From sequence record PZ445554.1: 64,000 nt of DNA. The stretch is one strand, 5' to 3'. This document shows, in pieces, positions 39,351 to 40,507 of the stretch. Each line of letters starts with the position of its first letter. The stretch's first letter is position 1. Position numbers and translations under genes: made by a program. A model generated the notes under the pieces. That model did no database searches, had not been told where the DNA came from, and was given only the letters and a program-made list of their open reading frames with translations. Source of the DNA: a phage.

Positions 39351-39378
39351 TTTATTCTCCTCAGTAGTAGATAGGGTA

Positions 39379-39408
39379 ATAGTATCACTACCCTATCTAA
39401 AAGTAAAC
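39379..39408 (-). promoter_or_regulatory. T4-type early promoter inside an 11-bp inverted repeat
   Basis: GTTTAC-N18-TACTAT; -10 element lies in loop of perfect inverted repeat TAGATAGGGTA/TACCCTATCTA (39368-39399). Confidence 0.5.
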
Positions 39409-39642
39409 TTATTTTTTACGAAAAATTGATTTATTTTCTGCTGCCCATTTTTCAATAACTGCAGCAGGACCAGTAACAACAATTTTATCACCGTAATCTT
39501 CTGCGGCGAGTTGACCGAAATTATCTAATGCATCACGAAGAACTCCATGAGGCATTTCACCCATTTTATCTTTCTTGCCAGTGTAAATAAACTCAACTTT
39601 TACATCAGCAGTTTCAGCAATAAATTCTTGGTAAGTTTTCAT
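39409..39642 (-). CDS. internal protein-like (IPI-type position, capsid targeting leader)
   Basis: ORF 39409..39654; from MKTYQEFIAE 77 aa; leader matches T-even internal-protein capsid targeting sequence. Confidence 0.6.
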   Translation of the reverse strand: MKTYQEFIAETADVKVEFIYTGKKDKMGEMPHGVLRDALDNFGQLAAEDYGDKIVVTGPAAVIEKWAAENKSIFRKK

Positions 39643-39676
39643 TTTGATTTCCATTTGGTTTTGTTTTGATAGGGTA

Positions 39677-39706
39677 ATAGTATCACAACTAAAACCCTAT
39701 GTAAAC
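39677..39706 (-). promoter_or_regulatory. T4-type early promoter inside inverted repeat
   Basis: GTTTAC-N18-TACTAT; flanked by ATAGGGT/ACCCTAT; 30-nt upstream block GTAAACAACTTTGTGAAATTATTTTAAATC repeated at 40031. Confidence 0.5.
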
Positions 39707-39718
39707 AACTTTGTGAAA

Positions 39719-39976
39719 TTATTTTAAATCTTCTAATCGTTTCTTCATCTTAGAACCGTTCTTAGCGATTTCGCCTGCATCAGAGCATAATGCTAAAAGC
39801 GCTTTAACTTTAGTTTGATCTCCTTTAAAAGATGAAGGATCAACAGCAGCAGCAAGTTCTTTAATACGAGAGAAAAGGCGCTCAGCTTCAGCTAAAGCCA
39901 TTCCAAGCTTTACTTCCATACCGTGGGAAGATTCAGTAATAGTAGTTTTTGTAGCAAACTCTTTGAAAGTTTTCAT
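39719..39976 (-). CDS. internal protein-like (capsid targeting leader variant)
   Basis: 85 aa; N-terminus MKTFKEFATK resembles the internal-protein leader; helical. Confidence 0.55.
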   Translation of the reverse strand: MKTFKEFATKTTITESSHGMEVKLGMALAEAERLFSRIKELAAAVDPSSFKGDQTKVKALLALCSDAGEIAKNGSKMKKRLEDLK

Positions 39977-40006
39977 TTTATTTTCCTAATTAATTTTGAT
40001 GAGATA

Positions 40007-40036
40007 ATAGTATCACTACCTCATCAGTATGTAAAC
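40007..40036 (-). promoter_or_regulatory. T4-type early promoter inside inverted repeat
   Basis: GTTTAC-N18-TACTAT; flanked by TGATGAG/CTCATCA inverted repeat. Confidence 0.5.
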
Positions 40037-40048
40037 AACTTTGTGAAA

Positions 40049-40507
40049 TTATTTTAAATCGTCTGCCCAATCGAGTTTAAGAGGCTCTTTATATTCACGA
40101 TCTAATACGACCGGAATTTGTACATCACCGCTAAATGATAAGGGTCCAACATTATAAGACAATGTTATATGCGGTGTGTAATCATCAAAATCATGTGTAG
40201 CACCTAGTGCCCGCGCATACATGTGTCGACAGCGCAGATATTCAGAATCTAGCACAAGTACAAGAGTCGATCCATCTTGTGTTTTCCATACTTCTAAATG
40301 CCCAGAAGAAGCTACTTCAAAACTTCCACTCGATGGAACATACGGAACATTTACTCTCGAATAACATATAGTCGAATGAATTTTTTCTCTAGGAACTGGA
40401 TTAGGAACACGTAAAGAGCGCTGAAGTTCTTCCAGCGCATCAAGTGTTAATTCTGAAAACTTAGCTGCTACATAAAGACCCGTTGAAAAGTCTTTAAATT
40501 CCATCAT
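40049..40507 (-). CDS. 57B: 2H-phosphoesterase family protein (gene 57B position; Acb1-like cyclic-nucleotide phosphodiesterase)
   Basis: 152 aa; two H-x-T/S-x motifs (HSTI, HITL) typical of 2H phosphoesterases; immediately upstream of 57A as T4 57B. Confidence 0.7.

Follow-up and report, generated by a model that had tools for sequence, protein, structure and literature searches.

The 64,000-nt stretch of DNA analysed here, referred to as the window, belongs to a T-even phage (Tequatrovirus). The region of interest is a variable internal-protein (IP) locus, which over the 2.4 kb compared is 97.7% identical to T6 and 97.1% identical to PST. All genes of the locus and its three promoters lie on the minus strand, and in reading order the genes are 57B/Acb1, ipV, ipVI and trna.4 (Table 1). 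About 850 T-even genomes match the locus. PST has the identical layout, 57B-ipV-ipVI-tRNA.4, and in the RB15 record Z35082 the slot between 57B and trna.4 is occupied by ip5-ip9-ip7-ip8. The cassette genes match PHROGs of internal head and internal virion proteins. The IP open reading frames between 57B and trna.4 bear a conserved capsid-targeting leader, MKT[YF]xEF..., and the similarity of the Shine-Dalgarno sequence and leader between ipV and ipVI gives cassette exchange another patch of homology. For ipVI, an in-frame ATG further upstream, at 39654, would give a protein of 81 residues. The internal proteins are effectors that the phage injects against host defences: GmrSD is the target of IPI and Ip2, and infection of E. 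coli strain ECOR17 requires IPIII.

On both sides of the IP open reading frames are minus-strand T4-type early promoters of the form GTTTAC-N14-GTGATACTAT, three in all, each with its -10 element within an inverted repeat. The -10 hexamers, TACTAT on the minus strand, occupy 39379-39384, 39677-39682 and 40007-40012, where a preliminary description of this DNA had placed them, and the GTTTAC -35 elements occupy 39403-39408, 39701-39706 and 40031-40036. A promoter scan reports TTTACA-17-TACTAT with a TG element, corresponding to 9/12 matches to TTGACA/TATAAT. Each promoter is embedded in a module composed of an A/T-rich upstream block, GTTTAC, a 17-bp spacer, TGn and TAYWAT, and the three modules form a 71-nt, three-copy repeat family with 61-85% identity. 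The block first described as a 30-nt repeat at 39701 and 40031 is exact, and its true extent is 33 nt; it includes the last codons of ipV, which ends ...RLEDLK, and of 57B, which ends ...WADDLK. From the T4 early-promoter literature we infer that the three sites are strong sigma-70 T4 early promoters. Their assignment as early promoters of internal-protein cassettes, already made in the preliminary description, is supported by the promoter match, the PHROG assignments and the PST layout. Directly upstream of the second IP locus of the window (157-aa IP, 31390-31863), no module of the three-site type is present.

Table 1. Features of the IP locus (window coordinates)
Feature	Position	Strand	Remarks
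gene 57B, Acb1-type 2H phosphoesterase (PHROGs label "RNA ligase")	40049..40507	-	phrog_755, 5e-68; upstream anchor of the locus
33-nt repeat copy B, including 57B codons D-L-K-stop	40028..40060	-	
module 3, predicted early promoter of ipV, core GTGATACTAT	39994..40064	-	upstream A/T block includes last codons and stop of 57B
hairpin 3, 5' arm UGAUGAGGUAGUG, loop AUAC, 3' arm UAUUAUCUCAUCA	39997..40026	-	13 sense-RNA pairs including G.U
ipV conserved Shine-Dalgarno and capsid-targeting leader (MKTFKEF...)	39941..39986	-	76% identical to ipVI stretch 39607-39652
ipV (Ip5) internal head protein cassette, 85 aa	39719..39976	-	phrog_3499, 1e-49; PST ipV, RB15 ip5
33-nt repeat copy A, sense GATTTAAAATAATTTCACAAAGTTGTTTACATA	39698..39730	-	UP-like A/T block, -35, ipV codons D-L-K-stop
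module 2, predicted early promoter of ipVI	39664..39734	-	reference copy of the 71-nt family
hairpin 2, ATAGGGT/ACCCTAT main stem, inner 4-bp helix, outer TTGTTT/AAACAA helix	39661..39708	-	
ipVI internal protein cassette, 77 aa from MKTYQEFIAE	39409..39642	-	phrog_8111, 1e-52
module 1, predicted early promoter of trna.4 homologue	39366..39436	-	61% identity in 71-nt family
hairpin 1, TAGATAGGGTA 39368-39378 / TACCCTATCTA 39389-39399	39368..39399	-	perfect 11-bp inverted repeat, 11/11 complementary; 14 pairs in sense RNA with G.U
trna.4 homologue, 61-aa membrane protein	39165..39350	-	phrog_1692; downstream anchor of the locus

As first described, the -10 hexamers lie inside the loops of inverted repeats at all three sites, and the repeats exceed shuffled sequences. 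The stem sequences reported at that stage are all present, the coordinates of site 3 having been off by one. In hairpin 2, the window-strand arms are ATAGGGT (39669-39675) and ACCCTAT (39694-39700), so that ATAGGGT of the sense strand corresponds to 39694-39700; the outer helix widens the repeat to the limits given in Table 1, and the 5' arm abuts the -35 element, 4 nt further upstream than in site 1. In hairpin 3, the Watson-Crick outer stem is 7 bp long (TGATGAG 39997-40003, CTCATCA 40020-40026), and in the T4 orthologue of this site the stem is entirely Watson-Crick, with a folding value of -17.4. Sites 1 and 2 have an identical 3' arm, TACCCTATC, and the window therefore contains two independent stem sequences, not three. 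The 3' ends of the hairpins are 17-21 nt from the AUG at all three sites, and the ribosome-binding site is not sequestered.

Folded as sense RNA, sites 1, 2 and 3 reach -18.5, -18.1 and -14.8 kcal/mol, respectively (z -4.2, -4.4 and -3.6). When only the arms were shuffled and the GTGATACTAT(TA) core was kept fixed, sequences folding as well arose in 0/2000, 26/2000 and 0/2000 cases. In the comparison of RNA and DNA folding proposed in the preliminary description, the RNA structures exceed shuffles at all three sites. Single-stranded DNA folds are significant at sites 1 and 2, on both strands (z about -3.1 to -3.7; -3.65 for hairpin 1), and not at site 3 (z -1.5 and -1.05), where a stable fold is seen only in sense RNA. 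A search with the Rfam 15 covariance models returned only tRNAs (37416-38367), with no match in 39300-40100 at E<=1.

Comparison with relatives bears on whether the arms covary. The comparison set comprises 53 T4-context promoters retrieved by a search pattern with no constraint on the arms. Counted in a fixed register, the native arms of the 53 promoters form 5.55 of 11 pairs, compared with 5.03 in the control; many promoters pair in shifted registers, and for this reason minimum-free-energy (MFE) tests on swapped arms replaced fixed-register counting. The native promoters have an MFE of -10.6, compared with -6.3 +/- 0.34 for arm-swapped chimeras, and after collapse to 25 families the values are -8.6 and -5.1 +/- 0.47 (z -7.4). 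Among the 25 families in fixed register, cells in which both sides have changed number 48 versus 31.2 +/- 4.8 (0/500), and the covariation score is 0.216 versus 0.144 (1/500) and is lower in every slid register. Of the 38 modules in the IP loci of 14 phages, 33 reach -10 kcal/mol or lower. For distinct IP-locus modules the figure is 23/28, exceeding all 1000 sets in which module halves were re-paired at the core (mean 16.9, maximum 22). The Mosigvirus orthologues of the 57B-IP promoter form a -15.4 hairpin from a different stem, AGGATGATGG.../...CATCCT.

The arm covariation is real but partial. Relatives' arms fit their own partners far better than those of other promoters, as the term covarying stems had implied, and the alignment with relatives that had been suggested as a check gave this answer; within the window, the covariation claim has only the two independent stems to draw on. 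The core-fixed shuffles, the arm swaps and the re-pairing within the locus agree with the original view of the stems as a maintained structure. It is very improbable that the repeat has no function, being an accident of a duplicated palindromic ancestor with shared ancestry posing as covariation. The common arm of sites 1 and 2 and the viability of phages with mismatched hybrids would fit such an origin, and the shuffle controls leave some relatedness among promoters; against it, at least eight unrelated strong stem sequences occur in a common register around one fixed core, the signal survives both family collapse and the slid-register controls, and the Mosigvirus orthologue reaches the same outcome with a different stem. 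The diversity of the arms bears equally on a dimeric DNA-binding repressor with its operator over the -10 element. Dyad symmetry at this position is the classic operator geometry, and the shut-off mechanism of T4 early promoters is incompletely understood (PMC3014915), but across 17 families the arms have entirely different sequences from promoter to promoter, and a single sequence-specific protein could not recognise them all; such an operator is scarcely conceivable and was rejected.

The strong hairpin is found in only 8/25 families of the promoter subtype and in only 5/14 early promoters of the window. It is quite improbable that the inverted repeat tunes the promoter through spacer geometry, melting, promoter escape or a -10 element held single-stranded in the loop; the repeat is absent in two thirds of same-subtype promoter families. 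In favour of tuning, the -10 element is at the centre of the hairpin in a recurrent register, and Alt-dependent stimulation of T4 early promoters needs sequence features other than the -35, TGn and -10 elements (PMC2988021). The register nevertheless varies, with site 2 shifted by 4 nt and the Mosigvirus orthologues differing, and the centring is explained by a compact module that leaves no positions free except in the spacer and the bases transcribed first, with no need of a promoter role.

The number, order or identity of the cassettes varies among relatives, and the boundaries of this variation are at the modules. BLAST breakpoints are located at window positions 39664 and 39724. In T4, Aplg8, UFV06, 4E10 and Sfk20, ipVI is absent, and the trna.4 promoter is composed of the left half of site 2 and the right half of site 1; a crossover in the conserved core that removed or added ipVI would produce such a hybrid. 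In T2, P-ip7 combines the left half of site 2 with the right half of site 3, and in the T4-type and T2 hybrids alike the switch falls within the invariant core. The same junction recurs in CM8 and T4_ev240, with differing crossover points. The breakpoints and hybrid promoters support the earlier suggestion that the sites are recombination boundaries. A study of T4 evolution (eLife 2022) places recombination at microhomologies of 6-10 bp rather than at promoter modules.

Natural hybrid promoters with mismatched arms are found in T2 (8 database records), T4_ev240, RB15 (P-ip7, -3.6) and Pu-Krd-SF1 (-1.9). Pairing broken without compensation in relatives, which the preliminary description had named as evidence against a selected structure, is thus partly seen, in these four. 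The mismatched hybrids show recombination in the core as their origin and a hairpin that is dispensable for a viable phage. Because promoters with mismatched arms persist in phages, any function of the hairpin is modulatory at most.

Taken together, the modules are probably IP promoter cassettes of about 70 bp that carry homology patches, with a hairpin that may mark a boundary in read-through RNA. In such a cassette, the A/T-rich upstream block overlaps the end of the preceding gene with its stop codon. Together with the GTGATACTATTA core and the conserved Shine-Dalgarno sequence and leader, this block would serve as a set of homology patches at which general recombination of the phage could add, delete or swap IP cassettes. 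The spacer and first transcribed bases, as the only positions free of promoter constraint, house the inverted repeat around the -10 element, and complementarity of the arms is kept in most copies despite their differing sequence. With the -10 element in the loop and the 3' arm directly after it, the geometry and the predicted start site, within the 3' arm, imply that the promoter's own transcript lacks the complete hairpin; the full structure would form only in read-through RNA or transient single-stranded DNA. Our best guess is that in read-through RNA it could act as a cassette boundary by dampening or pausing upstream transcription. Alternatively, the boundary role might be protective: once the upstream message has been cut in the A/U-rich or GGAG region just downstream, the hairpin might shield the resulting 3' end. 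For the processing or attenuation sites in read-through RNA proposed in the preliminary description no support was obtained, and a literature search for T4 transcript 5'- and 3'-end maps gave nothing usable for the IP locus.

A terminator that isolates each cassette transcriptionally, the original model for PeSLs (promoter-early stem-loops), is improbable here. The location between tandem co-directional genes fits, and the RB49 PeSL211/210 stem-loop lowered downstream lacZ expression (Arbiol 2010, PMC2839356). The stems of the present sites are, however, AT-rich and no U-tract follows, the 10-nt tails having a mean of 2.1 T and 5.25 A; the same study terms the T-even stem-loops weaker analogues, not homologues. 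A consensus terminator scan called nothing at the three sites, and an intrinsic (Rho-independent) terminator was rejected on the A-rich tails, the missing U-tract and this blank scan. Overall, the hairpin is selected yet dispensable, not an intrinsic terminator and, by its geometry, missing from the promoter's own transcript.

The inverted repeat could instead act, or be maintained, at the DNA level, either as a hairpin or cruciform in single-stranded or supercoiled DNA that focuses recombination, or passively, without any role in RNA, through template-switch ("quasi-palindrome") correction as T4 replicates. This reading is unlikely, though it accounts for several observations. Quasi-palindrome-templated mutation is established in T4 rII. 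The stems are overwhelmingly Watson-Crick (136/144 arm pairs), and arm mismatches have no strand asymmetry, with G.U pairs numbering 8 in sense and 9 in antisense (8 and 5 in a second, fixed-register count), a balance that favours neither RNA nor DNA. The DNA folds of sites 1 and 2 are significant on either strand, and crossovers map to the loop or core, as for the RB49 PeSL mini-circles (Arbiol 2010, PMC2839356). The crossover position is, however, explained simply by the core being the sole conserved stretch, the DNA fold of site 3 does not reach significance, and a 7-11-bp AT-rich stem with a 10-16-nt loop is energetically costly to extrude. In addition, the other early promoters of the window at 29253 and 19853 have the same geometry with a 3' arm that covers the Shine-Dalgarno sequence, a pairing that is sensible only for RNA. 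A further reading is that the hairpin around the -10 element, variable in sequence and conserved in structure, is a dedicated cassette-mobility signal, read as folded DNA by a structure-specific phage enzyme such as endonuclease VII or some other factor, with integron-like site-directed exchange of injected anti-defence proteins in place of generic homologous recombination; we consider this highly improbable.

As recombining promoter cassettes, the modules would let T-even phages swap injected effectors, each expressed immediately on infection, which bears on host-range evolution and phage engineering. This role of the modules in effector swapping is already recognised in the literature.

Integron attC sites, an analogy only, share with the present elements imperfect inverted repeats that flank cassettes, a variable sequence with a kept structure, and a link to cassette mobility. 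Here, by contrast, there is no integrase, the element itself is a promoter, and exchange is explained by homologous recombination in the core. Arbiol 2010 (PMC2839356) likewise compared PeSLs to integron attC sites.

In T4 e, soc, 49 and I-TevI, promoters lie within hairpins that affect only read-through RNA (PMC3014915). The promoter-in-hairpin arrangement is shared: upstream transcripts have the whole structure and the promoters' own transcripts are without the 5' arm. The T4 examples differ in that they are late promoters whose 3' arm sequesters the Shine-Dalgarno sequence or the AUG, which is not so at the three sites. The early promoters at 29253 and 19853 do match this design.

The PeSLs of RB49 and phi1, known also in PST/T4 and nt-1/KVP40, combine, like the present modules, an early promoter and stem-loop with a Shine-Dalgarno sequence and an A/T-rich block that holds the upstream stop codon. 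Both flank small accessory genes in hyperplastic regions and mark the boundaries of indels or replacements, and the stem-loop is mostly between the -35 and -10 elements or overlaps the -10 element. Those of PST/T4 have the form TTTACW-N17-TAYWAT (Comeau 2014, PMC4122927), which the present promoters fit, and the T-even elements are considered analogues of PeSLs, not homologues (Arbiol 2010, PMC2839356). The RB49 PeSLs have near-consensus TTGACA/TATAAT promoters, whereas TTTACA/TACTAT is found here and is not near consensus. Their stems are G/C-rich (GGGG...CCCC), whereas those of the present sites (TAGATAGGGTA, ATAGGGT and TGATGAG) are AT-rich and without U-tracts. Attenuator activity and mini-circles were demonstrated for RB49.

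The closest counterpart is the T-even element itself. Repoila, Tétart, Bouet and Krisch reportedly described, in 1994 (EMBO J 13:4181), a repeated element of about 70 bp, consisting of a T4 early promoter and an overlapping stem-loop, and proposed that it takes part in shuffling IP genes by recombination. As far as that work is summarised in Arbiol 2010 (PMC2839356), such elements occur at both T-even IP loci and comprise T4 early promoters with weaker, AT-rich stem-loops. The combination of promoter and stem-loop is thus already published for T-even IP loci (Repoila 1994, to the extent of that summary) and treated as PeSL-like in Arbiol 2010 and Comeau 2014, a precedent that the preliminary description did not recognise. 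Measured against the 1994 element as so summarised, the present modules occupy the same 57B–trna.4 locus with the same cassette genes (ip5/ipV, ipVI), and all five of the features compared are found in them, including the locus and leader, the length of about 70 bp, the promoter, the stem-loop and the variable cassettes. On that summary there is no essential difference, the arrangement in the window being T6/PST-like. To this the present analysis contributes a quantitative test of whether the arms covary, an inventory of hybrids with mismatched arms, and the finding that terminator features are lacking.

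In all three intergenic regions, the minus strand carries, in order, an A/T-rich block, GTTTAC, 14 nt, and GTGATACTAT. By sequence, sites 1, 2, and 3, which precede the trna.4 homologue, ipVI, and ipV, respectively, are T4-type early promoters with a 17-bp spacer, a TGn element, and a TACTAT -10 hexamer. The three -10 positions named in the preliminary description were confirmed, and the inverted repeats that it placed around them are all present, with two of its stem coordinates off by one. Its exact 30-nt duplication was also borne out; fully extended, the identical stretch measures 33 nt, and it lies within a 71-nt family of three copies. 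On the sense strand, the repeated block corresponds to the upstream A/T element and the -35 element, and it also holds the three final codons and stop of the preceding gene, D-L-K-stop being the C-terminal end of both 57B and ipV.

Every gene of the region is on the minus strand. Over the 2.4 kb around the sites, identity is 97.7% with phage T6 and 97.1% with Yersinia phage PST; Tevenvirinae account for nearly all of the 855 phage records with a match here. The PST annotation has the same gene layout (gp57B, ipV, ipVI, tRNA.4), and in the RB15 record Z35082 the equivalent slot is occupied by ip5, ip9, ip7, and ip8; the three sites therefore belong to the classic hypervariable T-even internal protein (IP) locus. 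An in-frame upstream ATG at 39654 on the minus strand offers an alternative start for ipVI, with an extension over 39643-39654 (MEIKMKTYQEF..., 81 aa); the conserved capsid-targeting leader starts at the second ATG, 39642, and PST annotates 77 aa. The pattern M-E-x-K-M-K-T is also present in RB15 ip8, CM8, and T4_ev240.

Features of the locus and of two further early promoters
Feature	Position	Strand	Remarks
dNMP kinase (gene 1)	40734-41498	-	
57A	40504-40734	-	
57B	40049-40507	-	phrog_755
ipV, internal head protein	39719-39976	-	85 aa; phrog_3499
ipVI, internal virion protein	39409-39642	-	77 aa; phrog_8111
trna.4 homologue	39165-39350	-	
tRNA cluster	37416-38367		
-10 hexamer, site 1	39379-39384	-	
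-10 hexamer, site 2	39677-39682	-	
-10 hexamer, site 3	40007-40012	-	
Inverted repeat 1	39368-39378/39389-39399		TAGATAGGGTA/TACCCTATCTA
Inverted repeat 2	39669-39675/39694-39700		ATAGGGT/ACCCTAT; outer helix extends to 39661-39708
Inverted repeat 3	39997-40003/40020-40026		TGATGAG/CTCATCA
33-nt exact repeat	39698-39730 = 40028-40060		
RegB consensus match	39350-39360	-	GGAGAATAAAA
Further -10-enclosing hairpin	29195-29253	-	-21.3 kcal/mol; 0/1000 shuffles
Further -10-enclosing hairpin	19795-19853	-	-19.6 kcal/mol; 0/1000 shuffles

The three hairpins exceed chance. In the folding check that the preliminary description had proposed, sense RNA was more stable than shuffles at all three sites (-18.5, -18.1, and -14.8 kcal/mol; z -4.2, -4.4, and -3.6 for sites 1, 2, and 3), and when only the arms were shuffled and the core was kept fixed, folds as stable arose in 0/2000, 26/2000, and 0/2000 cases. 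As single-stranded DNA, sites 1 and 2 are significant on both strands, and a serious rival to a role in RNA is that the hairpin acts at the DNA level or is kept passively by quasi-palindrome correction. Site 3 as single-stranded DNA is not significant on either strand (z -1.5 and -1.05), its stability being due to G.U pairs found in the sense RNA only; the stem of its T4 orthologue is fully Watson-Crick (-17.4 kcal/mol). The G.U asymmetry count between strands, 8 versus 9, favours neither RNA nor DNA.

The 3' arm is common to sites 1 and 2, leaving only two independent stems in the window, and relatives were therefore scanned for covariation. The pattern GTTTAC-N14-GTGATACTAT, with the arms left unspecified, retrieved 88 distinct promoter segments from IMG/VR, 53 of them in a T4-early context. 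The mean native fold is -10.6 kcal/mol versus -6.3 +/- 0.34 with 3' halves swapped among promoters, and -8.6 versus -5.1 +/- 0.47 (z -7.4) for 25 collapsed families. At least eight unrelated strong stems share one register around an identical core, among them GGTGTAGGAGC/GCTCCTACAC, TCCGGAAGTTT/AGACTTCCGG, and GGTGGAGTT/AACTCTACC. In a formal pair count over the 25 families, made with no selection for structure, 48 cells were changed on both sides versus 31.2 +/- 4.8 in shuffles (0/500), and the covariation score was 0.216 versus 0.144 (1/500), with all slid registers lower. Within the IP locus, 33 of 38 modules from 14 phages fold at <= -10 kcal/mol, as do 23 of the 28 distinct modules, a number above all 1000 core re-pairings (mean 16.9, maximum 22). 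Mosigvirus orthologues of the 57B-IP promoter retain a -15.4 kcal/mol hairpin, although its stem sequence and its register both differ.

The arm-swap, pair-count, and IP-locus tests thus uphold the covarying stems of the preliminary description, but only in part: hairpin energies are bimodal, and a strong hairpin is present in only 8 of the 25 families and in only 5 of the 14 early promoters of the window. Uncompensated stem breaks, the pattern that it had set against its own proposal, occur in four relatives, although the statistical signal persists. Arms are mismatched in T2 P-ip7 (-8.1 kcal/mol; identical in eight T2-lineage records), RB15 P-ip7 (-3.6), and promoters of Pu-Krd-SF1 (-1.9) and T4_ev240 (-9.5). 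The existence of such promoters in nature shows that the hairpin is dispensable. All three ip7 promoters sampled (T2, Pu-Krd-SF1, and RB15) are mismatched, each joining an ipI/ip5-type right half to a differing left half; the ip7 cassette seems to have been relocated repeatedly via core crossovers.

The modules are recombination boundaries, as had been suggested. BLAST homology to T2 and ESh30 begins exactly where module 2 does, at 39664, and that to UFV06 stops where the upstream block of module 2 ends, at 39724. T4, Aplg8, UFV06, 4E10, and Sfk20 lack ipVI, and their trna.4 promoter consists of the site-2 left half and the site-1 right half; T2 P-ip7 combines the site-2 left half with a site-3-type right half. 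Both hybrids switch inside the invariant GTGATACTATTA(CC) core. CM8 and T4_ev240 have a common cassette junction and differing crossover points, with arms matched in one and mismatched in the other. The Shine-Dalgarno sequence and capsid-targeting leader form a second homology patch.

In Klebsiella T4-like phages (Roth67, KpV477, and others), the match is confined to 73 nt (39319-39391, 93% identity), spanning the first trna.4 codons, the Shine-Dalgarno sequence, and the 3' arm and -10 core of module 1; the remainder of the locus is too diverged for megablast. In Shigella phage CM8, positions 1-370 hold an ipI-type cassette and promoter module followed by a 5'-truncated 57B (annotated CDS 125-370, 81 aa), and the module, at position 105, continues straight into 57B-internal sequence. 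Complete 57B was not seen within the fetched CM8 stretch, and the arrangement suggests that the cassette was inserted within, or substitutes part of, the 57B/Acb1 gene.

Since the loop holds the -10 and the 3' arm begins directly downstream of it, the promoter's own transcript is predicted to start within the 3' arm and would be unable to fold; folding would be possible only in single-stranded DNA or in RNA that reads through from the cassette upstream. The -10 falls in the loop because the spacer and first transcribed bases are the sole free positions in the compact module. An intrinsic terminator was rejected on the A-rich tails (5.25 A and 2.1 T per 10), and a terminator scan called none at the three sites, which also matched no curated RNA family in Rfam 15. 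An operator was rejected because arm diversity is too great, and ribosome-binding-site sequestration because 17-21 nt separate the end of each of the three hairpins from the AUG. The favoured reading is that the hairpin serves as an RNA-level boundary, which could act by pausing or attenuation, or could protect the upstream IP message at its 3' end once cleavage has occurred immediately past the hairpin. GGAGAATAAAA, which serves the trna.4 homologue as its Shine-Dalgarno sequence, lies 9 nt past stem 1 and matches the RegB strong-cleavage consensus GG*AGRAYARAA perfectly, the sole match found on the minus strand between 37000 and 42000.

Hairpins also enclose the -10 at the early promoters at 29253 and 19853, where the spacers TTCCTCTTGACTG and GTTCCTCTGTGG pair with the Shine-Dalgarno regions CAGTTAAGAGGAG and CTACGGAGGAAC of downstream 153-aa and 175-aa genes, respectively. 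The ribosome-binding site would be masked in read-through RNA and free in promoter-initiated RNA. A second early-promoter subfamily (minus-strand -35 positions 36388, 24864, 21292, and 19853) shares GGTACTATACAACTATCA, which spans the -10 and initially transcribed region and is also found upstream of T4 e.8.

The preliminary interpretation was partly right: its observation holds, and the promoter-hairpin feature is already known. The Repoila 1994 abstract reportedly describes a sequence of ~70 bp, with a T4 early promoter and an overlapping stem-loop, flanking most IP ORFs, and all five defining features of this T-even element were found at the three sites. Arbiol et al. 2010 (PMC2839356) credit Repoila et al. 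with observing elements of this kind at both T-even IP loci, built on T4 early promoters and having weaker, AT-rich stem-loops. Promoter-early stem-loops (PeSLs) were extended to PST/T4 with the consensus TTTACW-N17-TAYWAT (Comeau et al. 2014, PMC4122927); the strict features of RB49-type PeSLs, consensus boxes and G/C stems, are absent from the three sites. Promoter-in-hairpin geometry is established for T4 genes e, soc, 49, and I-TevI (PMC3014915), and the three sites resemble these in that, by their geometry, only read-through RNA, not the promoter's own transcript, would fold. To these systems, the present analysis makes incremental additions, namely quantitative arm covariation, viable mismatched hybrids, and sequence evidence against an intrinsic terminator; the gene e/soc logic is also seen at the 29253 and 19853 promoters.
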